The notes below the pieces were generated by a model, which saw only the letters and a list, made by a program, of their open reading frames with translations, had not been told where the DNA came from and did not search any database. From Armatimonadota bacterium (GTDB lineage: Bacteria > Bacillota > Desulfotomaculia > Desulfotomaculales > Nap2-2B), in the NCBI GenBank assembly GCA_023511535.1, contig JAIMBK010000003.1, positions 25,471 to 89,470 of the forward strand: a stretch of DNA of 64,000 bases, given 5' to 3'. Of this stretch, positions 968-61,076 are shown piece after piece; the first letter of the stretch is position 1; each line of letters opens with the position of its first letter. A program made the translations under genes and the position numbers.

Positions 968-1030
968 AGGCACAAAGAAAAGATGTGACATTTACTTTGT
1001 GCCTTTGTGCCTGAAAAACTTTGTGCCTGG
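968..1030. repeat. GGCACAAAG / CTTTGTGCC inverted-repeat element (copy K1)
   Basis: aGGCACAAAG, a 21-nt spacer, then CTTTGTGCCTTTGTGCC, aaaaa, CTTTGTGCCtgg. Same 9-mer family as copies at 28083, 40901, 50459 and 57898. Confidence 0.8.
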
Positions 1031-3420: not shown

Positions 3421-3456
3421 TAATTCCCATCCCCAACCCCTAACCCCTAATCCCTG
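3421..3456 (+). repeat. Heptamer tract (YAAYYCC)n-TG, copy H1, 5' of rlmD-like gene
   Basis: TAATTCC CATCCCC AACCCC TAACCCC TAATCCC TG, ending 15 nt before ATG 3471. Confidence 0.85.
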
Positions 3457-3470: not shown

Positions 3471-4694
3471 ATGATGAATCAGCGTGAATTTGAACTGGAA
3501 ATAACCGAAATGGCCCACCGGGGAGAGGCGGTGGGCAGGCTGAACGGCAAAGTTGTTTTTGTACCCTTCGCCATACCCGGGGAAGTGGTCCTGGTCAGGC
3601 CGCGCCTGGAAAAGAAAGATTACCTCGAAGCGGAGATTGTGGAAATCCGCAAGCCCTCGCCGCACCGGATTGAAGGGGCCTGCGCCGGTTTTGGCCGCTG
3701 CGGGGGCTGCAACTGGCAGCATATCGAGTACGGCTACCAGCTGGAGCTGAAAAGGCAGGTGGTCGAAGACCAGTTGCGGCGCGTGGGCAAGATCGCCAAT
3801 CCCGTGGTAAAGCCGGTTCTTCCCGCCGTCCGGCAGTGGCATTACCGCAACCGCGGTGATTTTTCGGTAAACAAGGAAGGATACCTGGGCTTCCGGATGC
3901 GGGGGACGCATAAATTCGTTCCCGTGCAGGACTGCCGCCTGATGCATCCGCAGATCAACGAGCTGCTTTCCCGGCTCCAGGGAAAATGTACCCGGAGCGC
4001 CGCCCGGAAGACACACAACGTCTGCCTCCGGTACGGCGTGCACACCGGGGAATGGTTAATCCAGCCCTTCCTGGATTTGCCGGACGTCCCGACCGGCCAG
4101 CCCTTTTACCGGGAAAAGCTGCTCGATCACCTCTTTGTTATTTCCGCGGCTTCTTTCTTTCAGGTTAATACCCTGCAGGCCGAGAAATTAATTGCCGTTG
4201 TGGAAGAATTCGTCCGTCCCACCGGGGAGGAAGTGCTGGTGGATGCCTACGCCGGGGTGGGGACGTTTGCTAAAGCCCTGGCGGGAAAAGTCCGCCGGGT
4301 AATCGCGGTGGAGGAGGCGAAGTCGGCGGTAAAAGACGCCGCGGTAAACCTGGAGGGGTTTGCCAATGTCCGGTATTACAAGGCGAAAACGGAAGATTTC
4401 CTGGGACAAATGACCGAAAGGGTGGATGTGGTGATCCTGGACCCGCCCCGGGCCGGTTGTTTCCGTCCGGCGCTGGAAGCCCTGGTGCGGCTCGCCCCGG
4501 CGAAGGTGGTTTACGTCTCCTGCGATCCCGCCACCCTGGCCCGGGATCTTGCCTTCCTGGTCGAAAACGGCTATACCCTCGGCGAAGTCCAGCCCGTGGA
4601 CATGTTTCCCCAGACCTACCACATCGAGTGCGTAGTTTCCATCGAAAGAAAACACAGTATTAATGGCAAGGGTTTGAGGTACTTTGGGAGTTAA
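3471..4694 (+). CDS. 23S rRNA (uracil-5)-methyltransferase, RumA/RlmD family (TRAM + Fe-S + SAM-MTase)
   Basis: N-terminal TRAM-like segment, Cys cluster CAGFGRCGGCNWQH, SAM motif VDAYAGVGTF, and C-terminal VYVSCDPATLARD typical of the RumA family. Confidence 0.85.
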   Translation: MMNQREFELEITEMAHRGEAVGRLNGKVVFVPFAIPGEVVLVRPRLEKKDYLEAEIVEIRKPSPHRIEGACAGFGRCGGCNWQHIEYGYQLELKRQVVEDQLRRVGKIANPVVKPVLPAVRQWHYRNRGDFSVNKEGYLGFRMRGTHKFVPVQDCRLMHPQINELLSRLQGKCTRSAARKTHNVCLRYGVHTGEWLIQPFLDLPDVPTGQPFYREKLLDHLFVISAASFFQVNTLQAEKLIAVVEEFVRPTGEEVLVDAYAGVGTFAKALAGKVRRVIAVEEAKSAVKDAAVNLEGFANVRYYKAKTEDFLGQMTERVDVVILDPPRAGCFRPALEALVRLAPAKVVYVSCDPATLARDLAFLVENGYTLGEVQPVDMFPQTYHIECVVSIERKHSINGKGLRYFGS

Positions 4695-8953: not shown

Positions 8954-8979
8954 AAACTAAAAAACAGGGGGGTTGGGGA

Positions 8980-9411
8980 ATGAAAATAAAGCAGATTTCG
9001 CTCTTTCTGGAAAACAAATCGGGGCGCCTGGCCAGGGTAACCCGGGTCCTGGGCGGGCACAACATCAACATCCGCGCCCTGTCCATTGCCGATACCACCG
9101 ATTTCGGCATCTTAAGGCTCATCGTCAACGAACCGGACCTGGCCTACCGGGTCTTAAAAGAAGCCGGTTTTACCGTCAGCGCCACCGAAGTCATTGCCGT
9201 GGAGGTTGCCGACGAACCCGGGGGGCTGGCCCGGGTGCTGGCCGTTTTAGAAGAGGCCGGTTTAAACATTGAGTATTTATACGCCTTCGTGCAAAAAACT
9301 CCCCGGGCGGCCCTGGTGGTGTTCCGGGTGGAGCAACTGGACGAAGCCATCGCCGCCCTGCAGGCCAAAGGCGTCCGGATCTTGAAAGAGGAAGAAGTGT
9401 ACTCTTTATAA
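8980..9411 (+). CDS. ACT domain-containing (amino-acid-binding) protein
   Basis: Two ACT-like beta-alpha-beta-beta-alpha-beta units ([15 protein letters not shown]..., [13 protein letters not shown]...). Classic partner gene downstream of paaK. Confidence 0.8.
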
Positions 9412-9418
9412 GCAGGAT

Positions 9419-11848
9419 TCAGCTTACTTCCTTGTTTTGAAAGGTTCTTTTGAATTGTTCCAGGGTCATCAGGACCGGCCGGGGTTTGCTGCCGTCAAAT
9501 TTCCCCACGATTCCCCTTTGCTCCATGATGTCCACGAGCCGGGCGGCCCTGGCGTAGCCGATGTGGAAGCGCCTTTGCAGCAGGGAGATGGAAGCGGTTC
9601 CTTTTTCAATGAAAAGCTGCACGGCCTGGGGAAGCAATTCGTCCTCTTCTTCGGCCAGGGCGGAATGGTTTTCCGGAAGCTCCATTTCCGCCACTTCCTG
9701 GTCGTAAACCGGTTTGGCCTGCTCCTTGAGAAAGGCTACCAGGGCCTCCACTTCCTTATCCGAAAGGAAGGTTCCCTGCACCCGCACCGGTTTGGGCGCT
9801 CCCACGGGGAAGAAGAGCATATCCCCCCTCCCCAGCAGCTTTTCGGCGCCGCCGATGTCCAGGATGGTGCGCGAGTCCATCTGCGAAGAAACGGCGAACG
9901 AGATCCGGGAGGGAATGTTGGCCTTGATCAAACCGGTGATGATGTCCACCGAAGGGCGCTGGGTGGCCACCACCAGGTGCAGGCCGGCGGCCCTGGCCAT
10001 TTGCGCCAGGCGGCAGATGGAATCCTCCACCTCGGCTGGCGCAACCATCATCAGGTCGGCCAGTTCGTCGATGATGATGACGATAAACGGCAGCGGACCG
10101 TCGCCGGCACCCCCGGCATGGACAACCCCGCCGCCGGCAGCCCCACCGGGGATACTCCCGGTATGCATACCCCTTTCGCCGGCGCTCCTGTTCTTGTCCC
10201 CGGCGCCCCCGCCGCCGGCCCCCGTTTCCCCGCCGGCTCCCGGCTCCCCCGCTTCATTTGCGCTTCCGGAAACGGGGCTCCTGGGCTGGCCCGCGTACAG
10301 CTGCTCATTGTACCGGGCAATGTCCTTGGCGCCGGCCGCGGCAAACAACTCGTAGCGCCGCTCCATTTCCTTGACCGCCCAGTGCAGAATGCCGGCCGCC
10401 TTTTTCGGACTGGTGACCACCGGGGTGATCAAATGCGGAATCCCGTTGTAGGTGATCAGTTCGACCATTTTGGGGTCGATTAAGATAAACTTTACTTCGT
10501 CCGGCGTGGCCTTAAACAGGATGCTGGCCACAATCGTGTTGATGCAAACGCTTTTTCCGGAGCCGGTGGCGCCGGCCACCAGCAGGTGGGGCATTTGGGC
10601 CAGGTCGGCGACGACGGGCGCGCCGGCGATATCTTTGCCCAGCGCCACGGTAAGCCGGGAAGGGGATTGCTGGAACTCCTTGCTTTCCAGCAACTCCCGC
10701 AAGTGGACGGTTGCTGTTTTCCGGTTCGGCACCTCGATGCCGATGGCGGCCCGGCCGGGGATGGGCGCCTCAATCCGGACCTGCGGGGCGGCCAGGGCCA
10801 GGGCCAGGTCGTCGGCCAGCCCGACGATGCGGCTCACCTTGACTCCCGCCGGCGGCTGGATTTCGTAGCGGGTGATGGCCGGACCAACAGTCACCTGCGT
10901 TACGCGGGCCGTTATGCCGAAGCTGGCCAGGGTTTCCTCCAGGATGCCGATCTTCTCGTTGATTTCCTTGTCGGTAACCCCGGATTCCCGGCCTTTTGCC
11001 GGGGACAGTAAAGATGCCGGCGGAAGCTGGCAGGTTTTGCCGCTGCGCACGGAAAAGGGGATTACCTTGCTCTCTTTTTTGTTTTGATCTTCCTGCTGTT
11101 TTTTGGCGGGGTGCCGCTCTCTGTCCCGGTCGGCTGCTGCTTCCGGGCGGTTGGCAATAATTACTTTTTTGCCGGCGCCTTGATCTTTTTGTTCGCCTTT
11201 GCTTTCCCCTTCCTCTTCTTTGATTTCCTCAAAAAGGAAATTAGAAATCCTGTGCACGGCCTTTCGTCCCGCCAGGGACAGGCGGGTCCCGAAGATTTGC
11301 CCCAACTGCGCCAGCGAAAGACCCGTCAAGAGGATCACCGCCACGATCAGCAGCGAGGTTAAGATAATATAGCTGCCCGCAAGGCCGAAATACTTGACCA
11401 GCAAGTAGCTGCCCAGAGCTCCCAGCAGCCCGCCGCCCTGACCCTGTTTTCCGGCGGAAAAGGTTTCGGCGAGGGGTACCCCGAGGTGCAAAAAGGTTAA
11501 AGCCACCAGCAGCAGCAGGGTAAGCCCGGTAAGCCGGGAGGTAATCTGAAGGTTCTGACGCTGCCGGATTATTTCCCAGCCAATGAAAAGAAAAAACAGG
11601 GGCAGCAGGTACCGGCCCGCCCCGGCGATACTGACGAGGCCCTGCCTGAGCAGGCTCCCGGCTGTTCCGGCGGCGGGCGTGAAAAGGCTGACCAGGCCGA
11701 GAAGCGCCAGGGTGATCGTGGCAATGCCCGCAAGCTCAAACTTCAACTCCGTGGGTGGCGGCTTGGCCACGCCGGCATTCCCCCTTTGCAAGCAGGTAAC
11801 CGCGAAGGCGCATAAAGCGCATAGAACCAAAGTTATCAAGGCTATCAA
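9419..11848 (-). CDS. ftsK: DNA translocase FtsK/SpoIIIE
   Basis: N-terminal TM segments, Walker A GATGSGKS, Walker B IIIDELADLM, C-terminal gamma wHTH (SISLLQRRFHIGYARAARLVD). Carries a Gly/Ala-rich insert (see findings). Confidence 0.9.
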   Translation of the reverse strand: MIALITLVLCALCAFAVTCLQRGNAGVAKPPPTELKFELAGIATITLALLGLVSLFTPAAGTAGSLLRQGLVSIAGAGRYLLPLFFLFIGWEIIRQRQNLQITSRLTGLTLLLLVALTFLHLGVPLAETFSAGKQGQGGGLLGALGSYLLVKYFGLAGSYIILTSLLIVAVILLTGLSLAQLGQIFGTRLSLAGRKAVHRISNFLFEEIKEEEGESKGEQKDQGAGKKVIIANRPEAAADRDRERHPAKKQQEDQNKKESKVIPFSVRSGKTCQLPPASLLSPAKGRESGVTDKEINEKIGILEETLASFGITARVTQVTVGPAITRYEIQPPAGVKVSRIVGLADDLALALAAPQVRIEAPIPGRAAIGIEVPNRKTATVHLRELLESKEFQQSPSRLTVALGKDIAGAPVVADLAQMPHLLVAGATGSGKSVCINTIVASILFKATPDEVKFILIDPKMVELITYNGIPHLITPVVTSPKKAAGILHWAVKEMERRYELFAAAGAKDIARYNEQLYAGQPRSPVSGSANEAGEPGAGGETGAGGGGAGDKNRSAGERGMHTGSIPGGAAGGGVVHAGGAGDGPLPFIVIIIDELADLMMVAPAEVEDSICRLAQMARAAGLHLVVATQRPSVDIITGLIKANIPSRISFAVSSQMDSRTILDIGGAEKLLGRGDMLFFPVGAPKPVRVQGTFLSDKEVEALVAFLKEQAKPVYDQEVAEMELPENHSALAEEEDELLPQAVQLFIEKGTASISLLQRRFHIGYARAARLVDIMEQRGIVGKFDGSKPRPVLMTLEQFKRTFQNKEVS

Positions 11849-13337: not shown

Positions 13338-13456
13338 GTGGCCTGAAAAAAAAGTTATTACCTGCTCCAAAAAATAACTTTTTCGTCCTCTGTCGGGTCG
13401 CAAAAAACATATGGTCTGAATTCCCAATCCCTGCTTTCAAGGAGGACGTTTTTCCC

Positions 13457-15241: not shown

Positions 15242-15271
15242 TAATTCCTAATCCCAAATTCCTAATTCCTG
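15242..15271 (+). repeat. Heptamer tract (YAAYYCC)n-TG, copy H2, 5' of iorA RBS
   Basis: TAATTCC TAATCCC AAATTCC TAATTCC TG, followed by cttttaAGGAGG and ATG 15294. Confidence 0.85.
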
Positions 15272-17693: not shown

Positions 17694-17726
17694 CCCCAAT
17701 TCCCAATTCCTAATTCCCAATTCCTG
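17694..17726 (+). repeat. Heptamer tract (YAAYYCC)n-TG, copy H3, 5' of paaK2 RBS
   Basis: CCCCAATTCC CAATTCC TAATTCC CAATTCC TG, then tatttaAGAGGTGa and ATG 17746. Confidence 0.85.
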
Positions 17727-21224: not shown

Positions 21225-21537
21225 AACATAACGATGGTCTTCAAATCCCGTGAAGGAGGAAAGTAGGCCGGGCCCAGTTCTTCAGGGAGGAGGCGTCGGC
21301 GACTGGAAGCGCCTCTAGAACATGGCTGGTTGAAGTTCCCTCCGGAGGAGCAGGCTGAAAACCTTGAGCGGTAAAGTAGGCTGCGCCGGCTTCTTCCCCC
21401 GTTACCGGGAAGGGGGTATCGGAGTTCATTCCTGTACCTTTTTACCTGAGGGGTTTGCGCTTTTGGCGCAGGCAAGTAGGGTGGTACCGCGAAAAGATTG
21501 ATGGCTTTTCGTCCCTATGGATGAAAAGCCTTTTTTA
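21225..21537 (+). promoter_or_regulatory. T-box riboswitch 1 (complete: Stem I, Stem II, Stem III, T-box, terminator)
   Basis: Stem I base is GGAGG (21255-21259) / CCTCC (21339-21343), with AAAGTA S-turn motifs at 21260 and about 21373. Stem III is GCGCttttGGCGC. T-box core is AAGTAGGGTGGTACCGCG (21474-21491). Terminator is GGCTTTTC...GAAAAGCC plus T6 (21503-21536). Confidence 0.85.
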
Positions 21538-21539: not shown

Positions 21540-21665
21540 TGTCAGGAATGATTTTTCCCGTACCCTAAGCGAGGGGGCCGCCGGCGCTCGGCGGTCAACC
21601 AGGGTGGTACCGCGAAGAGCCCGCAGCCTTCGTCCCTGGAGGGATGGAGGCTGCGGGTTTTTTTC
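21540..21665 (+). promoter_or_regulatory. Second T-box antiterminator/terminator module (no recognisable Stem I)
   Basis: Hairpin GGCCGCCGgcgctCGGCGGTC, T-box core CCAGGGTGGTACCGCG (21599-21614), and terminator CCCGCAGCC...GGCTGCGGG plus T7 (21620-21664). Confidence 0.75.
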
Positions 21666-21730: not shown

Positions 21731-22789
21731 ATGGTTGTTGTCATGGAGCCCGGTGCATCACCGGAAACGATCGAAGTCGTCAGCGAGAGGCTGGCCGCCC
21801 AGGGTTTTCAACCGCATTTAATCCATGGCGTCAGCAGAATTGTCATCGCGGCCGTGGGGGAGCACCGCGCGGCGGATACTTCAGGCCTGGAAAACTTGCC
21901 CGGCGTGGAAAAGGTAGTCCCCATCATGAAGCCTTATAAGCTGGCCAGCAGGGAGGTCAGGGGGGAAGACAGCGTGGTGAAAGCCGGCCGGGTGGCGGTA
22001 GGCGGCGGGAGAAGCGTGGTCGTGATGGCCGGGCCGTGCGCCGTCGAAAGCCGCGAGCAGCTGTTCATGGCGGCCCGGGTGGTGAAGCGGGCCGGGGCGA
22101 CAATTTTGCGCGGCGGGGCCTTTAAACCGCGGACGTCTCCCTACAGCTTCCAGGGGTTAGCAGAAAAGGGATTACAGTTGCTGGCGGAGGCAGCCGCCTG
22201 GGCGGGTCTGGCCACGGTGAGCGAAGTAATTGACCAGGAAAGCCTGGACATGGCCAAAGATTACGTGGATATTCTGCAGATTGGGGCGCGCAACATGCAG
22301 AATTTCCGCCTTTTGCGGGCGGCCGGCCGCTCCGGCAAGCCCGTTCTGTTGAAGCGCGGCCTCTCGGCGACCATCGAGGAATGGCTCATGGCGGCGGAAT
22401 ATATCATGTCGGAAGGCAACGAGCAAGTTATCCTGTGCGAACGGGGCATCCGCACCTTTGAGCGCCTGACGCGTAATACCCTGGACTTGAGCGCCGTTTC
22501 TCTGGTGAAAATCTTAAGCCACCTGCCCGTGGTGGTCGATCCCAGCCATGCCACCGGAGACCGGCGCCTGATCGGCCCGATGTCCAAAGCAGCACTGGCG
22601 GCCGGGGCGGACGGCCTGCTCATCGAGGTGCACCCCGATCCTGCTCAGGCGCTGTGCGACGGCCAGCAGTCCCTTAACCCGGAACAATTTACCGCGCTGA
22701 TGCAGGACTTACAGGCAATAACGCTGGTTACCGGGCGAAAATTGGGCAGCCTTCCGGAGGCGGGCAAAGGAATAAAAGCTGCCGGCTAG
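21731..22789 (+). CDS. aroF: 3-deoxy-7-phosphoheptulonate (DAHP) synthase, class I-beta with N-terminal ferredoxin-like regulatory domain
   Basis: N-terminal roughly 70-aa regulatory domain (VVVMEPGAS...), then KDO8P/DAHPS-type barrel (AGPCAVES, GAFKPRTSPYSFQG, DPSH). Confidence 0.9.
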   Translation: MVVVMEPGASPETIEVVSERLAAQGFQPHLIHGVSRIVIAAVGEHRAADTSGLENLPGVEKVVPIMKPYKLASREVRGEDSVVKAGRVAVGGGRSVVVMAGPCAVESREQLFMAARVVKRAGATILRGGAFKPRTSPYSFQGLAEKGLQLLAEAAAWAGLATVSEVIDQESLDMAKDYVDILQIGARNMQNFRLLRAAGRSGKPVLLKRGLSATIEEWLMAAEYIMSEGNEQVILCERGIRTFERLTRNTLDLSAVSLVKILSHLPVVVDPSHATGDRRLIGPMSKAALAAGADGLLIEVHPDPAQALCDGQQSLNPEQFTALMQDLQAITLVTGRKLGSLPEAGKGIKAAG

Positions 22790-25737: not shown

Positions 25738-25895
25738 CCAAATCTCACCCTTTCTAGTGTTTTACCGGTTGCCGGGATAATCTTTCCTCATTATCGCTCA
25801 ACAAAAGATTTCAATAAAAAAATAGAAAACCCTTTTTGGAAAATACATCTTGCTAAATTCCTACACGAAAGGTATAGAAAGAGGGCTGAAGTCAG

Positions 25896-25915
25896 CCCCT
25901 AACCCCTAACCCCTG
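25896..25915 (+). repeat. Heptamer tract copy H5 (G-rich on the mRNA strand, directly after the mutase small-subunit stop)
   Basis: CCCCTAACCCC TAACCCC TG on the + strand, 5 nt from the stop codon of the minus-strand gene 25920..26318. Confidence 0.8.
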
Positions 25916-25919: not shown

Positions 25920-26318
25920 CTATACTCGCACATTTTCCCTGATCCACTGCACAATCGTCTCGATCGGCGTGCCGGGGGTAAACAGCTCCTTTGCCCAGCC
26001 GCCCTCTTTTAAGGCTTTGATGTCGTCCGTCGGGATGGTGCCGCCGCCGATGACGATGATGTCTTCCGCTCCGCGCTCTTTCAGCAGTTCGCTCACCCGG
26101 GGGAAGAGGGTCAGGTGGGCGCCGGACAAAATGCTCAACCCGATGACGTCCACATCTTCCTGGATGGCGGCTTCGACAATCTGCTCGGGGGTTTGGTGCA
26201 GACCGGTATAGACTACTTCCATCCCCGCGTCGCGCAGACCCCGGGCGATTACCCGGGCGCCCCGGTCGTGACCGTCTAAGCCCGGTTTGGCGACTAAAAC
26301 GCGAATTCTTCTGCTCAT
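25920..26318 (-). CDS. icmB: B12-binding small subunit of acyl-CoA mutase
   Basis: DxHxxG motif ([10 protein letters not shown]), SxL...GG cobalamin-binding fold, 132 aa. Symbol is tentative and follows from the large-subunit signature. Confidence 0.85.
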
Positions 26319-28082: not shown

Positions 28083-28155
28083 CCAGGCACAAAGGCACAA
28101 AGTAAAATATTCCCTGGTTGCACCTGTTTCTTCGTGCCTTCGTGCCCCCTGTGCC
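28083..28155. repeat. GGCACAAAG / CTTYGTGCC inverted-repeat element (copy K2)
   Basis: ccaGGCACAAAGGCACAAAG, a 29-nt spacer, then CTTCGTGCCTTCGTGCC, ccCTGTGCC. Confidence 0.8.
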
Positions 28156-28247
28156 TCCCCTATAAAAATAGCTTTCGCACATTTTCATCTTCTGTTGATG
28201 TCGCCGAAAAAGCAGCATGGAGGTTTAATCCCCGATCTTTTCTCTAT

Positions 28248-28274
28248 CCCCTAATTCCCAATCCCCAATTCCTG
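28248..28274 (+). repeat. Heptamer tract copy H6 (G-rich on the mRNA strand, directly after the activase stop)
   Basis: CCCCTAATTCC CAATCCC CAATTCC TG on the + strand, 4 nt from the stop of minus-strand gene 28278..29228. Confidence 0.8.
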
Positions 28275-31367: not shown

Positions 31368-31400
31368 CAGGGATTAGGGGTTGGGGATTAGGGGATAGGG
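31368..31400 (-). repeat. Heptamer tract copy H7, 5' of the triad RBS
   Basis: Minus strand reads CCCTATCCCCTAATCCC CAACCCC TAATCCC TG, then ttcccAGGAGG and ATG 31349. Confidence 0.85.
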
Positions 31401-31603
31401 TTTACTTTTATGCCGCTTTTAGTGATCACAACGGAACAACAGAGGGTGCCCGGCGCACAGCTCAGGTTAATTTTTTTTGTTCTGAGCAGGGAGCTGGGAG
31501 CCGGTTGCTGATTCCGGATATCTATTTTCCTCTGTGTTCTCTGTGGTTAAATTTATATTATTGAGTATTTCTATGACTGCGGGGAAAATCCTCTTCCAAA
31601 AGG

Positions 31604-33636: not shown

Positions 33637-33666
33637 TAGGAATTGGGGATTGGGAATTAGGGATTA
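33637..33666 (-). repeat. Heptamer tract copy H8 in the hsp20 5' UTR
   Basis: Minus strand reads TAATCCC TAATTCC CAATCCC CAATTCC TA, then ttttcaAGGAGG and ATG 33615. Confidence 0.85.
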
Positions 33667-33812
33667 GCCCTCTTCCCGGACATGCTTGTTTTCATATCTG
33701 AAATTAAATTTGCCCGGAAACAACCGCAAATATACGCATAATAAAAGCAGGAAAATAACCTTTGTGCAGCGAAAGTCGAATAGTGGAGAAGGGACAAGGG
33801 AGATGATTTGCT

Positions 33813-34418
33813 TTGTGGATGAACCTGGAGCCGGCCATTCGAAAAGCGCGGGAGGATTTCGGCCGGCGCGACCCGGAAGCAATGGCCTTCAACGCCCGGG
33901 TGTCCTTTGCCCGGGGAGAATTCGAAATACCGTTCCTGGGCGAAGCATACCTGGTCCGCCACCCGCAGGGAGAGGTTAGGTGCATCCCGCAAGAACAGGA
34001 GGTACCTCTCCCCCTGCAGATTATTTTACTGCACTACCTCGCCCAGGCAACGCCGGCGGCCCCGGAAGGCAGGCTGGTCTCGTTTAAGGAATTGCCCGGC
34101 GGAAATATCTACGTGGGGCCTTTCACCAACCGGACGATCCGCCCCCTGCTGAAATACTTCGGCACGCAGCCGGAAAAGCTCCTGGCGGCCGGCGCAAAAT
34201 TAGGCGGGAAATCCGCCGGCGTTGGCGAGTTTTCCGTAACCGTGCCCGCTTTGCCGAAAATTCCCGTCACCTTTGTCATCTGGCCCGGCGACGAGGAATT
34301 TCCTCCTTCCGGAAATATTCTCTTCGATTCCTCCGCCGCCAGGCACCTGCCCGCGGAAGATTACGTTGTCTTGTGCGGCCTGGTTTTGGACGAATTAAGA
34401 AGAACAGGAGGCGAATAG
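33813..34418 (+). CDS. Hypothetical protein (possibly DUF3786-like)
   Basis: 201-aa ORF with good coding look. Its stop lies 1 nt before the nudF start. The family assignment is from memory only. Confidence 0.5.
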   Translation: MWMNLEPAIRKAREDFGRRDPEAMAFNARVSFARGEFEIPFLGEAYLVRHPQGEVRCIPQEQEVPLPLQIILLHYLAQATPAAPEGRLVSFKELPGGNIYVGPFTNRTIRPLLKYFGTQPEKLLAAGAKLGGKSAGVGEFSVTVPALPKIPVTFVIWPGDEEFPPSGNILFDSSAARHLPAEDYVVLCGLVLDELRRTGGE

Positions 34419-34419
34419 T

Positions 34420-34977
34420 TTGACCTCCCAGGCAGAGACCCGGGAAACCCGGATTGCTTCCAGAATCATCTACGAAGGGAAAATTGTTCATCTGCGGGTT
34501 GATCAGGTCAGGCTGCCCAACGGCCGGGAAGCCTCCCGGGAAGTGGTGGAGCACGCGCCGGCGGTCGCGGTGGTGGCCCTGGACCGGAATCAAAACGTTT
34601 TGCTGGTGAGGCAGTACCGTTACCCGGTGCAAAAGGAGGTGCTGGAAATTCCCGCCGGTCTGGTGGAAGCGGGGGAGGAGCCCCTGGCGGCGGCGCAAAG
34701 GGAGCTGGCGGAGGAAACGGGCCGGCGCGCCCGGCGCTGGCAGCCCCTTTTCAGCATTTATTCCTCCCCCGGATTTACGGACGAGCAGCTTCACCTTTTT
34801 CTGGCGCAGGACCTGGAGCCGGCCGGCGGGCAGCACCTGGACGAGGACGAGTTTATCAAAGTGGTGAAGGTGCCCCTGGCGCAGATTCCGGAAATGATCA
34901 GGCGGGGCGAAATCTGCGACGCCAAGTCCGTCGCCGGCCTGCTGGGGTGCGGCTATCCGTTTGAAGGTCGCAGGTAA
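34420..34977 (+). CDS. NUDIX hydrolase (ADP-ribose pyrophosphatase-like)
   Basis: Nudix box GLVEAGEEPLAAAQRELAEETG. TTG start. Confidence 0.85.
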   Translation: MTSQAETRETRIASRIIYEGKIVHLRVDQVRLPNGREASREVVEHAPAVAVVALDRNQNVLLVRQYRYPVQKEVLEIPAGLVEAGEEPLAAAQRELAEETGRRARRWQPLFSIYSSPGFTDEQLHLFLAQDLEPAGGQHLDEDEFIKVVKVPLAQIPEMIRRGEICDAKSVAGLLGCGYPFEGRR

Positions 34978-35690
34978 GGGCGGATGACCAGTTTCCCGTT
35001 TTCCAGCAGGGCCATTTGCGGGGTCCCGTTCTCCGGAAGGGAGGATGGGGAACTCTTCCGCGGCGCCGGCGCCGCCACTCCGGCGATGGTCAGCCGGTTG
35101 GGGCGGAGGTCCAGCGCCACCACCATGGCCTTTTGGTTGTCCGGTTCGCCGGCGTGCACGTCTCCCCGGCACCGCCCCATAATGACGACGTCCCCGGAAG
35201 CGAAAATCCGGGCGCCCGGGTGAACGTCCCCCACCAGGACCAGGTTGCCGGAATGGACAATTTGCTGCCCGGAGCGCAGCTGGGTGCACACCAGCCGGGC
35301 GCGCTCGCCCGCACCGTTTTGGGCCGGACGGACCGGCCAGCGGATGTTCGGGGCGGGAACCAGCCCGTATTGCCGGCAGATGTTTTCCAGCTCCACCTGC
35401 TGCTCTGCGTTCAAGGCCGTGTTTCCCTGGTAGAGGGTAAATTTAGCGCCCCGGAAAAAGCCCCGGGCCGCTTCGATTTTATGTTTCAAGTTATTCTTAA
35501 TCTCTTCAAATTCCCTTTCCGGGTCAAAAAAGATGACCAGACCTTCGCGCGTTCCTTTAATGCTGACAAGTTCCTTCGCCAAAGGAAATCCACCCTTCCA
35601 GGATTTTCTTTCTACGGGTAAAATTCGACTTGCCTGTTCTTTTTCCTGCCGGAAACGAAAAGTTTGTTTAAAAAAGGTCGGCCTTTGCAT
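34953..35690 (-). CDS. minC: Septum site-determining protein MinC
   Basis: N-terminus IKGTREGLVIFF. C-terminal beta-helix repeats (VHSGNLVLVGDVHPGARIFASGDVVIMG). The true start may be internal. No minD is adjacent. Confidence 0.8.
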   Translation of the reverse strand: MQRPTFFKQTFRFRQEKEQASRILPVERKSWKGGFPLAKELVSIKGTREGLVIFFDPEREFEEIKNNLKHKIEAARGFFRGAKFTLYQGNTALNAEQQVELENICRQYGLVPAPNIRWPVRPAQNGAGERARLVCTQLRSGQQIVHSGNLVLVGDVHPGARIFASGDVVIMGRCRGDVHAGEPDNQKAMVVALDLRPNRLTIAGVAAPAPRKSSPSSLPENGTPQMALLENGKLVIRPYLRPSNG

Positions 35691-40894: not shown

Positions 40895-40900
40895 AAAGAG

Positions 40901-41140
40901 GTACAAAGGACAAAAAAGAAAGGCACAGAGGCACAAAGGCACAAAGAAAGAAAGGAATCAAGGGATTAAAGGGCCAGCGGCACAAGGGCACAGAGGAGTA
41001 GAGGTACTAAAGAATAGAATCAACCCGGTACCTGTTTTTAAACTTTGTGCCTTAGTGCCTGGTTAACTTTCCAATCTATATACCTCAGTGCTTAAACTAA
41101 CTTCTTAACCTTTGTGCTTTTGTGCCTGCTCAACTTTGTG
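40901..41140. repeat. Largest GGCACAAAG / CTTTGTGCC inverted-repeat cluster (copy K3)
   Basis: The left half has at least 6 GTACAAAG/GGCACAGAG/GGCACAAAG-type units. The right half has at least 5 CTTTGTGCC/CTTAGTGCC/CTTTTGTGCC-type units. It fills the etfA-thiolase spacer. Confidence 0.85.
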
Positions 41141-44226: not shown

Positions 44227-44385
44227 AAAACGATCCGGATTAAGTAAATCCAGAAGATAAATACATAGGGAATTGGGGAAAAGGGTAAAAGATAAACGTA
44301 GAAAACACTCTCGTAGCCAGTGTTTCTAATAAAGTCTTAACCCTTGATCCCAATTCTTCATTTCTAACGTAAAGGGAGCAATGAA

Positions 44386-46209: not shown

Positions 46210-46860
46210 TTGTTTACCGGCATCGTCGAAGAACTGGGAACACTCCGGCAAATTGTCCGGGGAACCGCCTCGGCCCGTTTAAAAATTGAGGCCCGGCACG
46301 TGCTGGAAGGAACCCGCGCAGGGGACAGCATTGCGGTCAACGGAGTTTGCCTCACCGTTACCGCCCTGGACAAAAACTTTTTCACCGCCGACGTGATGGC
46401 CGAAACCCTGGCCAAAACAAATTTAGGGCAACTGGCGCCCGGCGACCGGGTTAACCTGGAGCGCGCCCTGCGGCTGGACGCCCGCCTGGGCGGGCACCTG
46501 GTGAGCGGCCACATCGACGGCGTGGGAACAATCCTCCGGCGCGAACCGCACGACATCGCCACCCTGCTGACGATCGGCGCCCCTGCCGGGGTAATGCGCT
46601 ACATTATTAAAAAAGGCTCCGTGGCTATTGACGGGATCAGCCTGACGGTGATAGATTTTAATGATAGCAGCTTTCAAGTTTCCCTCATTCCCCATACGGC
46701 CGCCCTGACCACGCTGGGCTTCAAAAGGCCCGGCGACACCGTGAACCTGGAGGCCGACCTCATCGGGAAGTACGTGGAGCGCCTTTTACTCCAGAGGGAA
46801 AACGGCCGCCGGGAAAAGCTGTCCCTGGCCTTTTTGGCCGAACACGGATTTATGGAATAG
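46210..46860 (+). CDS. ribE: Riboflavin synthase
   Basis: MFTGIVEELG N-terminus, duplicated lumazine-binding barrel. TTG start. Confidence 0.95.
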   Translation: MFTGIVEELGTLRQIVRGTASARLKIEARHVLEGTRAGDSIAVNGVCLTVTALDKNFFTADVMAETLAKTNLGQLAPGDRVNLERALRLDARLGGHLVSGHIDGVGTILRREPHDIATLLTIGAPAGVMRYIIKKGSVAIDGISLTVIDFNDSSFQVSLIPHTAALTTLGFKRPGDTVNLEADLIGKYVERLLLQRENGRREKLSLAFLAEHGFME

Positions 46861-46922
46861 GGATTGGGGGTTAGGGATTGGGAATTAGTGTCGCGGGTTA
46901 GGAATTAGGAATTGGGGGATTG
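46858..46922 (-). repeat. Heptamer tracts copy H9 (two blocks; G-rich on the mRNA strand, starting at the ribE stop)
   Basis: + strand reads TAGGGATTGGGGGTTAGGGATTGGGAATTAG (46858-46888) and GGTTAGGAATTAGGAATTGGGGGATTG (46896-46922). Confidence 0.85.
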
Positions 46923-50455: not shown

Positions 50456-50458
50456 AAA

Positions 50459-50494
50459 GGCACAAAGGCATCAGGCTCAGAAACACAAAGGAAC
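50459..50494. repeat. GGCACAAAG-type repeat (copy K4, left-arm units only)
   Basis: GGCACAAAGGCAtcaggctcagaaACACAAAGGAAC. Confidence 0.6.
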
Positions 50495-50799: not shown

Positions 50800-50832
50800 C
50801 AGGAATTAGGAATTGGGAATTAGGAATTGGGG
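50800..50832 (-). repeat. Heptamer tract copy H10, 5' of rpmB RBS
   Basis: Minus strand reads CCCCAATTCC TAATTCC CAATTCC TAATTCC TG, then tttttatAGGAGGTG and TTG 50778. Confidence 0.85.
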
Positions 50833-51178: not shown

Positions 51179-51421
51179 ATGGCCTTAGGGCAAAAACGGA
51201 ACACTTTAATTTTCCCGCAGGCTGCTGCCGCGATGGAGCAGTTCAAATGGGAAACCGCCCGCGAACTGGGCGTCCAGGTTCCGCAGGGAGGTTACATGGG
51301 TGATATTCCTTCCCGGGTCAACGGCGCCATCGGCGGCAACATGGTCAGAAAGATGATTGCCGCCTATGAGCAAAGCCTGGCTGCCGGTTCCCAGCCTCCG
51401 ACCCCGCAGGTAACCAGGTAG
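51179..51421 (+). CDS. Alpha/beta-type small acid-soluble spore protein
   Basis: FKWETARELGV...GGYMGDIPSRVNGAIGGNMVRKMI, the canonical SASP motif pair. RBS AAGGAGGTG. Confidence 0.9.
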   Translation: MALGQKRNTLIFPQAAAAMEQFKWETARELGVQVPQGGYMGDIPSRVNGAIGGNMVRKMIAAYEQSLAAGSQPPTPQVTR

Positions 51422-58786: not shown

Positions 58787-58787
58787 G

Positions 58788-58900
58788 ATTCCCTCCCCAG
58801 TTCCCCACCCCTGATTTCCAATTGTCAACCCCCAATTCCCACCCCTAATCCTAATCCCTAAGTTTAACTTCAACTCCAATCCCTAATTCACAATTCCCAA
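58788..58900 (+). repeat. Longest, degenerate heptamer-tract region (copy H11)
   Basis: About 110 nt of CCCTCCCC / CCCCAATTCCC / CCCCTAATCC TAATCCC TAA ... CAATCCC TAATTCA CAATTCCC units between crp-1 and the TauE-like gene. Confidence 0.75.
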
Positions 58901-58967
58901 ATTATCAACTTACGTTCAAAATATGTCATCTACTTGCTAATAACCTGTCGTCAGGATGACCTTTATT

Positions 58968-58991
58968 ATGTCTGCCGGCTGACATTATAAT
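58968..58991 (+). promoter_or_regulatory. Palindrome abutting a TATAAT box upstream of the TauE-like gene
   Basis: ATGTCTGCCGGCTGACAT (16/18 symmetric; half-sites ATGTC/GACAT), immediately followed by TATAAT (58986-58991). Confidence 0.4.
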
Positions 58992-59163
58992 TGTCGTGTA
59001 TCTGTTATTTTACTTTGTAAAGGTAATTTTAAGGACAGATTAAAAAAAGCAGGTTAAGGAGGTGTGAGTTATCGATAGGTTGATGATTTGTCCGGGAAAG
59101 GGAGGATGAGTTGGAATTATTTTTTTGGTTTACCGGATAACTCGTTAAATGGGGGAGGACGTC

Positions 59164-60378: not shown

Positions 60379-60471
60379 GCCTTGCGAAGCGGGGATCAAT
60401 TGCTCAGGCTCCAGATCCGCCAGCGGGCCTGAGCAATTTCCGCCCGAAAAGGCACGAGGGAAGGGGGTCAA

Positions 60472-60496
60472 CCCCCCTCCCAATTCCTGATTCCTG
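60472..60496 (+). repeat. Heptamer tract copy H12
   Basis: CCCCCCTCC CAATTCC TGATTCC TG, about 50 nt upstream of ATG 60546. Confidence 0.7.
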
Positions 60497-60545
60497 TTTT
60501 GCCCGGGGTTGCGCCTGGAAACGTTCGTTCCGAGGTGATTTTTTT

Positions 60546-61076
60546 ATGGATTTTTGGGCAGTTCTCGACTTGATTTTGATTTCTTTTTACCGGCTTACCG
60601 GCAACCCGGTCCTGGACTTTTTTCTGGGTACCTTCGGGGTAGCTTTCCTGGTCGTGTTGATTGGGGAATTCACCATATCTTTAGTTTTCAAAGCAAATAA
60701 ACGTCATCTGGAGAGCTTGAACGTCCGCCTGTCCGATTTGCACCGCCTTTCTATGGCGGCCCTGCGGCTGGGCGACAAAAAAAGCTACCGGGCATGCAAT
60801 AAGGAGGCCAATGACACCTTCGGGCAGGTTTTTTTCAATATGTTCGGCCTGTCGGCGGCCTCTCTCTGGCCCGCTTTTTTCGCCCTGAGCTGGATGCAGC
60901 AGCGCTTTGCCGGGATTGGTTTCCCCCTTCCCTTTACCGGCTATACAGTGAACTATGTTGTTCCCTTTTTGATCTGCTATATCTTAAGCAGGATGTTGTT
61001 TGGCCGGGTAAAGCATAAACTTCCGTATTTCAAAGGCGTTTCGGAAATGCTGGCGGCCTGCGAAAAAAATCAATAA
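60546..61076 (+). CDS. Hypothetical integral membrane protein (176 aa)
   Basis: ATG 60546 follows GAGGTGA. Four predicted hydrophobic segments. The ORF-track 60009 start is an out-of-context extension overlapping the TauE-like gene. Confidence 0.6.
   Translation: MDFWAVLDLILISFYRLTGNPVLDFFLGTFGVAFLVVLIGEFTISLVFKANKRHLESLNVRLSDLHRLSMAALRLGDKKSYRACNKEANDTFGQVFFNMFGLSAASLWPAFFALSWMQQRFAGIGFPLPFTGYTVNYVVPFLICYILSRMLFGRVKHKLPYFKGVSEMLAACEKNQ

Follow-up and report, generated by a model that had tools for sequence, protein, structure and literature searches.

Dispersed, polar heptanucleotide tracts at open reading frame boundaries in a Desulfotomaculales-like Bacillota genome

Between the iorB stop codon and the Shine-Dalgarno (SD) sequence of a phenylacetate-CoA ligase gene lies an array of YAAYYCC heptamers (17694-17726), and it raises the question of what such an array is, why others like it are scattered around it, and whether it does anything for the genes that it accompanies. 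We put that question to the window, by which we mean the whole 64-kb stretch of DNA that was analyzed, and to other genomes, and establish here the repeat class of the tracts, their polarity, spacing, sequence constraints, turnover, and cross-phylum occurrence. The host belongs to the Bacillota and is spore-forming and Pelotomaculum/Desulfotomaculales-like. Its IlvD is 95-96% identical to proteins of Bacillota MAGs and 80-81% identical to that of Pelotomaculum, and the traits of a spore-former and of Bacillota found in the window are encoded SASP and SpoIIIE/FtsK proteins and a T-box.

The heptamer family in the window

The exact pattern YAAYYCCYAAYYCC has 23 matches in the window, compared with 0.06 expected from dinucleotide shuffles. 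A relaxed scan, in which a perfect seed unit is joined by neighboring units with at most 1 mismatch each, gives 19 tracts, whereas Markov-shuffled sequence averages 1.5 and never exceeds 6. The curated set contains 17 tracts at 14 intergenic loci, for a chance expectation of about 0.06 to 1.5, and since the window has approximately 51 intergenic regions of at least 40 nt, about a quarter of them carry a tract. All 14 loci are intergenic or overlap a stop codon. Tandem Repeats Finder reports a period of 7 (or 14) at 3431, 15242, 17695, 25896, 28246, 31369, 33637, 46854, 46898, 50801, and 63943. The tracts are not an assembly artifact, because the independent Logan assembly of run SRR15214128, through a 6.7-kb contig that reaches 927 nt beyond the window, matches at 100% identity over 5770 nt, tracts at 58826-63960 included.

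An earlier note made from the letters alone had placed tracts at 3421, 15242, 17694, 22937, 25896, 28248, 31368, 33637, 46858/46896, 50800, 58788, 60472, and 63943, with a fragment at 44266, and each of these is a tract or fragment, although two members were overlooked (13418-13431 and the remnant at 44341-44359). It was also right to set CRISPR aside. A CRISPR array consists of repeats of about 24-48 nt with unique spacers of similar length, and the tracts are contiguous 7-mers without spacers. They are listed below with gene boundaries drawn by open reading frame (ORF) and SD heuristics, with Pfam support for most neighbor genes; in class A the C-rich strand is the sense strand, and in class B the G-rich strand is.

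3421-3454, + strand: class A tract, TAATTCC CATCCCC / CAACCCC TAACCCC TAATCCC, 9 nt to GGGGTGG and 19 nt to the ATG; the gene behind it (3474-4694) is a TRAM plus U5-methyltransferase gene
8969-8982, - strand: doubtful member, probably a chance hit; GGGGTTGGGGAATG on the + strand corresponds to the SD and ATG of an ACT-domain gene
13418-13431, + strand: class A tract of 2 units, GAATTCC CAATCCC, then tgctttcaa-GGAGG; 25 nt to the GTG of a DctQ-like gene (13457)
15242-15269, + strand: class A tract of 4 units, then tgcttttaa-GGAGG; 24 nt to the ATG of an iorA-like gene (15294), in an intra-operon spacer, 31 nt past the DctM stop codon
17694-17726, + strand: index tract, class A, with core 17697-17724 CAATTCC CAATTCC TAATTCC CAATTCC, then tgtatttaa-GAGGTG; 21 nt to the ATG (17746) of phenylacetate-CoA ligase, 31 nt past the iorB stop codon
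22933-22946, + strand: class A tract of 2 units, CTATCCC CAATCCC, then tgttttaaaa-GGAGG; 23 nt to the pheA ATG (22970)
25893-25913, C-rich strand +, flanking genes -: class B tract, G-rich in the mRNA, where it starts 6 nt past the stop of a B12-binding-domain gene (25920-26318) and 155 nt before ilvD; a terminator-like hairpin has the distal unit as one of its arms
28245-28272, C-rich strand +, mRNA -: class B tract of 4 units, G-rich, 5 nt past the TAA of a BcrAD/BadFG-type ATPase gene
31370-31404, - strand: class A tract of 5 units, then tgttccca-GGAGG; 20 nt to the ATG (31349) of a DUF2229 CoA-enzyme activase gene
33639-33666, - strand: class A tract of 4 units, then tattttcaa-GGAGG; 23 nt to the hsp20 ATG (33615)
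44268-44279, - strand: fragment, + strand G-rich GGGAATTGGGGA, about 40 nt past the stop codon at 44226; complementary to the remnant in the next line
44341-44359, + strand: degenerate class-A-like remnant, cccTTGATCCCAATTCTTC, 21 nt to the ATG at 44381, at the head of a riboflavin gene cluster
46860-46914, - strand: class B double tract, 46860-46887 (4 units) plus 46894-46914 (3 units), sense (+) strand G-rich; the TAG that ends the riboflavin synthase (Lum_binding) gene and the first unit overlap, and ribBA follows 122 nt on
50802-50829, - strand: class A tract of 4 units, CAATTCC TAATTCC twice and hence with a 14-nt super-period, then tgtttttata-GGAGG; 23 nt to the TTG start (50778) of the gene for ribosomal protein L28
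58787-58897, + strand: long decayed C-rich array including 58826-58839 and 58877-58897, 266 nt upstream of a TauE-like gene and 3' of a hairpin that follows the stop codon at 58759; no adjacent SD
60481-60494, + strand: sense-strand tract of 2 units, CAATTCC TGATTCC tgtttt; 51 nt to the ATG at 60546, with a hairpin between tract and SD
63947-63960, + strand: tract of 2 units, CAATCCC TAATCCC tgtatttaat, in a divergent intergenic region, 126 nt to the start of a - strand gene and about 200 nt to a + strand gene starting just outside the window

The units vary while their pattern is kept, as the note had said. Six forms cover 42 of the 54 units, with TAATCCC, CAATTCC, and TAATTCC dominant and CAATCCC accounting for 8. 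Positions 1, 4, and 5 exchange C and T only, A2, A3, C6, and C7 are nearly invariant despite the mismatch allowed in each unit, and C6 and C7 never become T. The combination CT at positions 4-5 is expected 5.3 times and observed 0 times, and G makes up 4 of the 378 tract bases (1%). On the other strand the units are GGRRTTR, which in tandem reads GGGAATT, GGGGATT, or GGGGGTT. Four units is the most common copy number (7 of the 17 tracts), followed by 2 units (6), 3 units (3), and 5 units (1). Adjacent units are identical in only 2 of 37 pairs, where random draws would give about 4, so the signature of recent duplication is absent, and recent slippage is, as had been argued, insufficient on its own as an explanation. 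The ending CC-TG proposed for the tracts holds to the extent that the last unit is followed by T in 13 of 17 cases and G in 12 of 17, but the conserved flank is actually longer, with consensus TGTTTTTAA.

Polarity, spacing, and turnover

The way in which the tracts face genes is strictly regular. At 11 of the 14 loci an ORF boundary is found no more than 25 nt from the 3' (TG) end of the C-rich strand, and at 0 of 14 is one that close to the 5' end, a polarity matched by random placement in 0 of 100,000 trials. The strand and position bias beside SD sequences that had been suspected is strong and real. For 8 class A tracts the distance from last unit to SD (GGAGG, GAGG, or GGGG) is 8-10 nt, narrower than the 5-15 nt first proposed, and the start codon follows at 19, 25, 24, 21, 23, 20, 23, and 23 nt, respectively; the 60481 tract, 51 nt from its start codon, departs from the rule. 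At the class B loci (25893, 28245, and 46860) the G-rich sense tract begins 0-6 nt past a stop codon, and the mirror configurations of both classes are found at 0 of the 14 loci. The mRNA-centered description in the note leaves out half of the regularity, namely these G-rich tracts after stops. What is constant is a polarity at the DNA level, in which the 3' end of the C-rich strand faces the nearest ORF in either gene orientation. The downstream genes share no functional class (rpmB, pheA, iorA, paaK, hsp20, rib genes, a mutase, and others).

The same unit pattern recurs, polarity included, in many phyla. When 185,579 species genomes were scanned with a query that needed at least 3 units followed by TG, 158 tracts at 119 loci were returned, several of them at contig ends. 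Of these 158 tracts, 65 have an ORF boundary no more than 20 nt from the 3' end and 20 have one that close to the 5' end (p = 1e-6), and in the subset that is free of the TG search bias the numbers are 40 versus 11. Four units is again the mode of copy number, with 53 of the 158 tracts.

Close relatives give a view of how stable the individual tracts are. The pheA tract is missing at the orthologous site in 3 of them: L130 has a single TAATTC beside the conserved flank, and L127 and L129 have an unrelated insertion of about 250 nt. The flank, TGTTTTRA-GGAGG, is conserved in relatives where the tract is absent, and the idea that it is part of a mobile module together with the array is rejected for pheA, as L130 has the TGTTTTGA-GGAGG flank but no array. 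The post-stop tract of the B12-binding gene (25893) is likewise absent from L129, while that after the BcrAD stop (28245) has an orthologous counterpart in L127, made of 3 diverged units. Individual tracts are gained, lost, and remodeled fast between genomes with 95-96% identical IlvD, which argues that individual tracts are dispensable. The nearest PaaK homologs (79-83% identical, from L001, L002, L122, and L124) have no upstream tract and almost none in 16-21 kb, a comparison that tells little, given the different gene order around them, and a tblastn comparison of the window with Bacillota genomes from the scan (L047, L072, L074, and others) found no shared genes, hence no orthologous sites to compare. 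The Logan contigs of the relatives are only 3-7 kb long, and one breaks within a repeat element; the tracts probably fragment short-read assemblies.

What the tracts may do

The reading that we prefer, tentatively and with a probability of roughly 0.45, is that this is a fast-evolving heptamer family whose members survive only in polar and ORF-proximal positions, probably as a structure-poor leader platform that tunes translation initiation. Tracts turn over fast and persist only where the G-free strand reads 5' to 3' into the nearest ORF. When that ORF is co-oriented, the tract would be in the mRNA leader, ending 8-10 nt upstream of a canonical SD, where it would most likely form a single-stranded platform with little structure and so tune initiation, either as a ribosome stand-by site or as a dock for S1/Csp-type OB-fold binders of single-stranded RNA, and the last unit (UUCCU) could add a weak hairpin that masks the SD. 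When the ORF is counter-oriented, the complementary G-rich tract lies directly past the stop codon. That the tracts are transcribed, affect translation, and meet a binding partner is what we infer; for the tracts in sense orientation, a candidate binding platform or stand-by site is the most plausible reading. In favor of this reading are the abundance and polarity of the tracts, the recurrence of the rule across phyla, the sequence constraint, the published heptamer repeats, and leaders that have no more predicted structure than shuffles and often have less (z > 0 in 7 of 9). Among proteins that might dock there, CspB reportedly occupies heptamer repeats at a ratio of one protein to each unit. 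Several observations sit badly with the platform. Tracts come and go rapidly between close relatives, and S1 is known to have little sequence specificity. The predicted probability that the SD is unpaired is 0.33 in tract-bearing leaders versus 0.46 in 44 other genes (p = 0.054), so accessibility is slightly lower where a simple role in keeping the ribosome-binding site (RBS) open would have it higher. The platform also fails to explain the class B tracts or a DNA-level polarity that is blind to gene orientation.

Function may not be needed at all, although we find this somewhat unlikely. The tracts would then be simple sequence repeats (SSRs), arrays made by slippage and recombination and tolerated only at harmless sites and in harmless orientations, and the polarity would be the trace of a filter, by which, for example, G-rich RNA that is SD-like or prone to form G-quadruplexes (G4) would be purged from the neighborhood of start codons. 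The differences in presence and copy number between genomes with such similar IlvD fit, as do the single TAATTC of L130, as if an array had grown or shrunk in place, and the insertion in L127 and L129, which suggests a permissive site. Imperfect units are mostly at the ORF-distal edge of tracts, the genes downstream have nothing functional in common, and heptanucleotides are reported to be the commonest class of long SSR in prokaryotes, credited to polymerase slippage. Against this, identical neighbors are as rare as 2 in 37 pairs, and positions 6-7 stay nearly invariant although C and T replace each other freely at positions 1, 4, and 5. In 8 tracts the distance to the SD varies by no more than 3 nt, and tracts hug the ORF boundary in intergenic regions of 180-250 nt, through which a tolerance filter predicts that they would be spread. 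One unit family with one polarity in many phyla is a further difficulty. The distinction has consequences. If the tracts tune translation, then about a quarter of the intergenic regions carry an unrecognized expression signal, for which gene callers and RBS models should allow, and if they do not, then they are a striking example of selection filtering the sites of a mutationally active repeat.

An extension of the platform idea, which we hold to be rather improbable, makes the arrays a cross-phylum, orientation-dependent cis-element read by OB-fold binders, with four units corresponding to S1 domains. One OB domain of the cold-shock or S1 type would cover a site as long as the 7-nt period, and the 28-nt four-unit mode would mirror the four RNA-binding domains of S1 instead of the G-runs of a quadruplex. 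A (YRAYYCC)4 array just 5' of the RBS would then serve the 30S subunit as a landing pad that is portable and evolvable, with repeated recruitment or horizontal spread in Cyanobacteria, Bacteroidota, Acidobacteriota, Chloroflexota, Planctomycetota, and Bacillota. It is compatible with the data because the four-unit mode and polarity persist in families unable to form a G4.

Anti-SD mimicry, raised by the note as a possible role, fares poorly, and we consider it improbable. By this account UUCC or UCCC of the last unit pairs with AGGAGG and masks the RBS, in the manner of an RNA thermometer, with upstream units as alternative registers, and translation would be tuned or become temperature-dependent. 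Small hairpins between last unit and SD (4-7 bp, loop 4-7 nt) are predicted in the leaders of iorA, hsp20, rpmB, the activase gene, and dctQ. The targets include hsp20, a spacer fixed at 8-10 nt would keep the loop size constant, and the lower unpaired probability of the SD points the same way, if at borderline significance. Against that, folding energies are no lower than those of 200 dinucleotide shuffles (z from -1.25 to +1.87, with z > 0 in 7 of 9 leaders), and 4 of the 9 leaders are beaten by at least 173 of the 200 shuffles. By prediction the paaK leader has essentially no structure, and the targets are mostly housekeeping genes (rpmB and pheA). The class B tracts are left unaccounted for, as are the same repeats before start codons in lineages such as Bacteroidota and cyanobacteria, which make little use of SD sequences.

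That the tracts are operator sites for a dedicated protein, forming a global regulon, or that C-rich leaders pair with G-rich post-stop tracts as RNA, is very improbable in our estimate. The position-specific constraint, with Y allowed at three positions, would fit either pyrimidine recognition or G-C and G-U pairing with a GGGGUUG-type partner. C-rich 31370 and G-rich 28245 and 25893 are on one strand of one gene cluster, where a putative transcription unit from 31349 to 24064 would begin with a C-rich tract in its leader and contain two G-rich ones. The complementary 44268-44279 and 44341-44359 could pair, and a heptamer-binding protein has been postulated in Nostoc (Pradhan et al.). No candidate protein emerged, however, the downstream genes are functionally unrelated, the sites turn over rapidly, and the pairing idea rests on three loci.

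Least probable among the graded alternatives is a non-B structure, a G-quadruplex of the G-rich strand, with a C-strand i-motif, acting on transcription, replication, or mRNA ends. A quadruplex role has been proposed for the Xanthomonas and Nostoc repeats, and Rehm et al. 2015 (PMC4692102) observed G4 formation by GGGAATC and GGGGAYT oligonucleotides in CD spectroscopy. The four-unit mode is the minimum for a G4, both here (7 of 17) and across phyla (53 of 158), and in the 3427, 31370, and 46860 tracts four or more G3 runs go with a predicted G4. These 3 are, however, the only competent ones of the 17 by prediction; 23 of the 54 units give GG only, and ViennaRNA with G-quadruplex folding predicts none for the commonest units, CAATTCC and TAATTCC. 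Across phyla, families with GG-only units keep the four-unit mode (18 of 64) and have a polarity (33 versus 6) even stronger than that of families with G3 units (17 of 52; 20 versus 11). As a general explanation the G4 is rejected, since mode and polarity persist where it cannot form, and this leading structural idea for such repeats is weakened accordingly.

The remaining candidates are quickly dismissed. A Rho-utilization (rut) site, C-rich and G-poor RNA leading into an ORF, would unify classes A and B but is rejected as a general explanation because cyanobacteria show the same polarity and are not known to have Rho. The TGTNTTTAA flank as an extended -10 promoter is in poor register with TGnTATAAT, transcription starting there would leave no leader before the SD, and a promoter scan placed no site at any tract. 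CRISPR, palindromes of REP/BIME or MITE type, against which speak a tract strand with about 1% G that cannot pair with itself and the lack of predicted structure within tracts, and structured RNA families are all rejected, Rfam giving no family match at gathering score, nor at E ≤ 1 in the region tested.

Relation to known heptamer repeats

The note took the tracts for something other than a described element, and this does not stand, as heptanucleotide repeats of the same type have been published (STRR; Rehm et al. 2015; TAACTGA). In contingency loci, such as Haemophilus hmw, heptanucleotide repeats upstream of genes bring about phase variation. Short tandem repeats of variable copy number between promoter and start are common to both, but the tracts consist of non-identical units, accompany housekeeping or metabolic genes with no link to surface structures, and occupy about a quarter of the intergenic regions. 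ROSE and fourU are RNA thermometers that sequester the SD. The tracts resemble them in having a pyrimidine stretch upstream of the SD that is able to pair, with hsp20 among the genes, and differ in having weak predicted hairpins, no better than shuffles, and in being a dispersed repeat and not a conserved structured leader.

Heptanucleotide repeats have been known in cyanobacteria since 1990, when Mazel et al. reportedly gave the STRR1 unit of heterocystous cyanobacteria as CCCCA(A/G)T. STRR are 7-bp tandem repeats of cyanobacteria, intergenic and also found between the cistrons of operons (hupS-hupL and pecE-pecF), for which roles in transcript stability or translational coupling have been suggested. 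The unit length agrees, CAATCCC is CCCCAAT in shifted register, and many dispersed, mainly intergenic head-to-tail copies are a feature of both. The host here is no heterocystous cyanobacterium, and its arrays have 2-5 units, whereas long near-perfect arrays are common in cyanobacteria.

TAACTGA direct repeats were described by MacGregor 2015 (PMC4679880) in marine Beggiatoaceae, cyanobacteria, and Bacteroidetes; in Beggiatoaceae they are directly upstream of start codons, with S1 and Csp as proposed binders. They are heptamer arrays too (2-6 copies), stand before ribosomal-protein genes as well, are patchily distributed among phyla, and have a forward orientation near start codons, as 8-9 tracts do here. 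TAACTGA arrays themselves were searched for in the window, and none was found. Theirs overlap or replace the SD, whereas here a strong SD is kept 8-10 nt downstream, and the after-stop rule of class B has not been described for TAACTGA.

Close counterparts are the repeats of Rehm et al. 2015 (PMC4692102), GGGAATC in Xanthomonas and GGGGA(C/T)T in Nostoc PCC 7120, most of which are transcribed. In separate work on Nostoc, removal of heptamer repeats had modest reporter effects. (CAATCCC)n is the reverse complement of (GGGGATT)n in shifted register, (CAATTCC)n corresponds to (GGGAATT)n, 1 base off GGGAATC, and the G-strand units of the tracts are 0-1 nt from published ones and agree with the unit consensus GGG(N)AT(C/T). 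Both sets are dispersed and mainly intergenic, usually between co-oriented ORFs, have a mode of four units, and show no tie to one functional class of genes, and the rule that the repeat is always closer to the ORF on the 5' side of its G-strand is what classes A and B amount to here. The differences are a Desulfotomaculales-like Bacillota host, units that are heterogeneous within a tract, a fixed 8-10 nt to a canonical SD, and a canonical G4 predicted for only 3 of the 17 tracts, so that the feature for which the class was named is mostly missing. Hence, the tracts are a lineage-specific heptanucleotide repeat family of an already described class, now in a Bacillota host, and they offer a clean case in another phylum, with short arrays, fixed SD spacing, strict polarity, and relatives that differ tract by tract.

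Abundance and unit anatomy of the tracts

The index tract at 17694-17726 on the + strand reads ccCAATTCC CAATTCC TAATTCC CAATTCC tgtatttaaGAGGTGatcaccATG. The 64 kb contains 23 exact matches to YAAYYCCYAAYYCC, where dinucleotide shuffles predict 0.06. A relaxed scan, which requires one perfect seed unit and allows at most 1 mismatch per neighboring unit, finds 19 tracts in the window where shuffled sequence averages 1.5 and never exceeds 6; the curated total is 17 tracts at 14 intergenic loci. A scan match at 8969-8982 is probably merely the Shine-Dalgarno sequence (SD) and ATG of an ACT-domain gene. Tandem Repeats Finder independently calls period 7 or 14 at the same sites, and of the 17 longest stretches in the window that lack G or lack C, 11 are tracts, the chance expectation for G-free runs of at least 35 nt being about 0.13. 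Because a Logan assembly from another read set is identical across 5770 nt that include the tracts at 58826-63960, the tracts are not assembly artifacts. A tract or fragment is present at every coordinate listed in the earlier, sequence-only note, which overlooked 2 items:

13418-13431, tract of 2 units before a DctQ-like gene
44341-44359, degenerate remnant

The units are under strong internal constraint. Six forms cover 42 of the 54 units, namely CAATTCC (11), TAATTCC (9), CAATCCC (8), TAATCCC (6), CAACCCC (4), and TAACCCC (4). That unit sequences vary while the pattern is kept, as the earlier note had it, is borne out in a stricter form, with variation confined to C/T at 3 positions on a strand that is nearly free of G (4 of 378 tract bases, in a genome of 56% G+C). 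Among the 54 units, position 1 is C in 27 and T in 25, position 4 is T in 41 and C in 12, and position 5 is C in 30 and T in 24, while A2, A3, C6, and C7 almost never vary, though the scan tolerated one deviation per unit. The combination CT at positions 4-5 is never observed, against 5.3 expected. Neighboring units match exactly in just 2 of 37 pairs, versus about 4 from random draws, so recent tandem duplication is not in evidence. Four is the commonest unit number (7 of 17 tracts), imperfect units lie mainly at the 5' edge, and the 3' flank is conserved with the consensus TGTTTTTAA.

Placement at gene boundaries and turnover in close relatives

Gene boundaries were drawn by an ORF plus SD heuristic, with Pfam support for most of the neighboring genes. 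Tracts with the C-rich strand sense, before a start codon, are called class A, and those with the G-rich strand sense, after a stop codon, class B.

Tracts at gene boundaries, with the distance from tract end to start codon for class A
3421, class A, TRAM/U5-methyltransferase gene downstream, 19 nt
13418, class A, dctQ downstream, 25 nt
15242, class A, iorA downstream, 24 nt
17697, class A, paaK-like gene downstream, 21 nt
22933, class A, pheA downstream, 23 nt
31370, class A, DUF2229 activase gene downstream, 20 nt
33639, class A, hsp20 downstream, 23 nt
50802, class A, rpmB downstream, 23 nt
25893, class B, begins 6 nt past the stop codon of a B12-binding-domain gene
28245, class B, begins 5 nt past the stop codon of a BcrAD-type ATPase gene
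46860-46914, class B, at 0 nt, overlapping the riboflavin synthase stop codon

All eight class A tracts keep a fixed spacing to the SD, ending 8-10 nt ahead of GGAGG, GAGG, or GGGG; the tract at 60481 lies 51 nt from its start codon. Placement 5' of the SD, as first proposed, describes the class A tracts; the overall rule is tighter than that and also polar. The common rule acts at the DNA level: the 3' (TG) end of the C-strand faces the nearest ORF, whichever way the ORF is oriented. At 11 of 14 loci the C-strand 3' end is no more than 25 nt from an ORF boundary, a proximity that the 5' end shows at none of the 14, and when position and orientation were randomized within the same intergenic regions, 0 of 100,000 trials matched the observed polarity. 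About 14 of the 51 intergenic regions of at least 40 nt bear a tract. Exceptions to the rule are the loci 58787-58897 and 63947. At hsp20, the TAA of the first unit would be the stop codon of a putative ORF at 33657-33992 (-); this ORF and another upstream of hsp20 at 34276-35289 (-) have no Pfam match, and gene content is uncertain over 33.6-35.7 kb, where several putative ORFs overlap on both strands.

The window PaaK is a 100% match to a protein of an NCBI MAG labeled 'Armatimonadetes bacterium', a label that appears wrong. The host is a Desulfotomaculales-like spore-forming member of the Bacillota, judging from an alpha/beta-type SASP gene (51179-51421), a SpoIIIE/FtsK gene (9419-11848), a T-box, and IlvD identities of 95-96% to Bacillota MAGs, 86% to a Desulfotomaculales MAG, and 80-81% to Pelotomaculum species. 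The T-box leader at 21241-21519 (+), scoring 96.7 bits and above the gathering score, lies upstream of the DAHP synthase gene (21731-22789) and then pheA, so that it precedes genes of aromatic amino-acid biosynthesis and not a tRNA synthetase gene. Terminator-like hairpins lie near it at 21503-21530 and 21615-21662 (two).

Three contigs of relatives (L127, L129, and L130) have IlvD 95-96% identical to that of the window and partly share its gene order. Past the BcrAD stop codon, L127 reads ...TAA AGACA GGAATTA TGAGTTA GGAATTA, with position and flank (tgtctttat.c...cccagcgcgggcagcgtcctcc) as in the window and three diverged units against four. L129 lacks a tract at the orthologous site past the B12-binding stop codon. 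Upstream of pheA, L130 reads ...CTG TAATTC TGTTTTGA GGAGGATGAAATCC ATG, a single unit-like copy beside the same flank and SD as in the window, and that precise spot is occupied in L127 and L129 by some 250 nt of unrelated inserted sequence. Past the POR-gamma gene, a class B tract is present in L127 and L130 and absent from the window; the more distant PaaK-linked contigs are almost without tracts. Conservation at orthologous positions, a check suggested at the outset, is therefore partial, the BcrAD-site tract being kept and remodeled and the pheA and B12-binding sites lacking one. From these differences, individual tracts are gained and lost over a short time scale. The flank is part of the ancestral ribosome-binding region and not of a mobile module.

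Other repeats share these neighborhoods. A structured, MITE-like repeat, some 250 nt long (...GGGCTGGAATTTGTCCGGGTGAG...CCCGGAGCAGCGGAGCGAACCGGACAATTCCAG...), occurs in the close relatives and has 0 matches in the window at up to 3 mismatches; it inserts directly upstream of the SD of pheA, paaK, and a mutase gene, at pheA filling the place of the heptamer tract. A second dispersed family consists of intergenic octamer arrays, (AAAGGCAC)n and its complement, with 5 matches in the window versus 0.08 expected. These are frequently right past stop codons (that at 40897 begins 3 nt past the stop codon at 40894), and in relatives they are inverted and could form hairpins upstream of ilvD.

MITE-like repeats and octamer arrays
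L127 12776-13203 and 1107-1540, MITE-like repeat
L002 ~9880-10000, MITE-like repeat
L122 ~300-600, MITE-like repeat
L129 3966-4027, MITE-like repeat
Window 995-1014, 28083-28146, 40897-40996, 50456-50471, octamer arrays
L127 ~9790-9870, and L130, octamer arrays

The same rule across phyla and what the tracts may do

A pattern scan with YAAYYCCYAAYYCCYAAYYCCTG over one genome per species (185,579 species) matched at least 119 stretches. The matches listed include Cyanobacteria, Acidobacteriota, Bacteroidota, Chloroflexota, Planctomycetota, Gemmatimonadota, Verrucomicrobiota, some Proteobacteria, and several Bacillota, and their units generalize to YRAYYCC (such as TAACTCC/TGACTCC, TAATCCC, and TAATTCC). 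The same placement rule holds across these phyla. For the 158 tracts of at least 3 units from the matches listed, the C-strand 3' end has an ORF boundary no more than 20 nt away in 65, compared with 20 for the 5' end (binomial p = 1e-6); same-strand start codons (53) and opposite-strand stop codons (52) both contribute. The 94 listed tracts not followed by TG, a subset that is therefore without search bias, give 40 versus 11 (p = 6e-5). Four is again the commonest unit number (53 of the 158 listed). In Nostoc sp. PCC 9305 (L008 3430-3473), a TAACTCC-type array lies 8 nt past the stop codon of a riboflavin synthase homolog (39% identity), in class B orientation as at 46858-46887 in the window, which is probably a coincidence. 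Tracts are often located at extreme contig ends of public assemblies, as in the scan loci L028, L035, L062, L083, L087, and L117; the relatives' Logan contigs L125, L129, and L130 are just 3-7 kb, and the L129 break falls inside the MITE-like repeat. Heptamer repeats probably fragment short-read assemblies, and would therefore be under-counted.

The sense-orientation tracts would be part of the mRNA, several of them being located in spacers of 80-130 nt that separate co-oriented genes, such as dctM-iorA and iorB-paaK. There they may form a single-stranded platform with little structure, immediately 5' of the ribosome-binding site, serving as a stand-by site or an S1/Csp-type docking site, with weak SD masking by the last unit as a secondary effect. 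We give the combined statement, a heptamer family of known kind acting as a transcribed single-stranded leader platform, a probability of about 0.45; the identity as such a family is near certain by itself, and the platform mechanism by itself is tentative. The main rival, also rather doubtful, is that the tracts are functionless and their polarity is a tolerance filter. Rapid turnover favors it, and a pure filter is at odds with the internal sequence constraints, with SD spacing precise to 3 nt, and with tracts that hug ORF ends even in long spacers.

Anti-SD mimicry, suggested in the earlier note, finds a basis in the nine sense-orientation leaders folded, where the last unit (UUCCU) is often predicted to form a small hairpin with AGGAG. 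Total folding energies, however, do not improve on dinucleotide shuffles (z from -1.25 to +1.87, positive in 7 of 9), and essentially no structure is predicted for the paaK leader. The predicted unpaired probability of the SD is 0.33 in tract-bearing leaders versus 0.46 in 44 other genes (p = 0.054). The pairing is therefore possible yet weak, a consequence of composition, and masking or thermosensing as the function is improbable.

The tracts have no Rfam match at the gathering score or, in the region tested, at E <= 1, and no promoter-like site in a scan of the window coincides with them. At 25893 the distal unit is one arm of a terminator-like hairpin; the frequency of such hairpins is not above chance overall. 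More improbable than anti-SD masking is that the tracts have a binder dedicated to them, or that C-rich and G-rich tracts pair with each other. A putative transcription unit running 31349 to 24064 on the - strand (three activase genes, mutase, B12-binding protein, ilvD) has a C-rich leader tract at 31370-31404 and G-rich tracts further along the RNA at 28245-28272 and 25893-25913, and long-range pairing is possible in principle. In the riboflavin cluster (44381 to ribH at ~48885), where no FMN riboswitch is detected even at E <= 1, the 154-nt leader 44227-44380 has two complementary fragments of the heptamer family, one G-rich (44268-44279) and one C-rich (44341-44359), that could pair.

Least probable is a G-quadruplex or i-motif, since at least 4 G3 runs or a predicted G4 occur in just 3 of 17 tracts, and since, among the cross-phylum tracts listed, GG-only families keep the four-unit mode (18 of 64, against 17 of 52 in G3 families) and a polarity (33 versus 6) stronger than that of G3 families (20 versus 11), so that G4 capacity is out as the cause of either feature.

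Relation to known heptamer repeats

The tracts are real and statistically solid, and they belong to a known, functionally unexplained class; the earlier note was wrong in not recognizing a described element, as Rehm-type, TAACTGA, and STRR heptamer repeats are already published. Rehm et al. 2015 (PMC4692102) describe GGGAATC repeats in Xanthomonas and GGGGA(C/T)T repeats in Nostoc PCC 7120, always closer to the ORF on the repeat's 5' side in any ORF orientation, the majority transcribed, and with function not found. The (CAATCCC)n of the window is the reverse complement of their (GGGGATT)n in another register, and (CAATTCC)n that of (GGGAATT)n, 1 base from GGGAATC. Sharing both units and placement rule with these repeats, the window family belongs to the same kind of element. 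MacGregor 2015 (PMC4679880) describes TAACTGA heptamers just before start codons in Beggiatoaceae, cyanobacteria, and Bacteroidetes, suggests S1, Csp, or CsrA as binders, and cites CspB binding to heptamer repeats at one protein per heptamer. Mrazek et al. 2007 are reported to have ranked heptanucleotide repeats as the most abundant long SSR class and to have suggested polymerase slippage. For the STRR, 7-bp repeats found in filamentous cyanobacteria, the function is unknown and roles in transcript stability or translational coupling have been suggested; in a 2022 preprint the deletion of other heptamer repeats in Nostoc had modest reporter effects. New here are the host lineage, the heterogeneous units, the canonical SD retained at a fixed distance, the evidence that the four-unit mode and polarity are independent of G-quadruplex capacity, and the presence or absence of tracts between near relatives, which makes the question of function testable.
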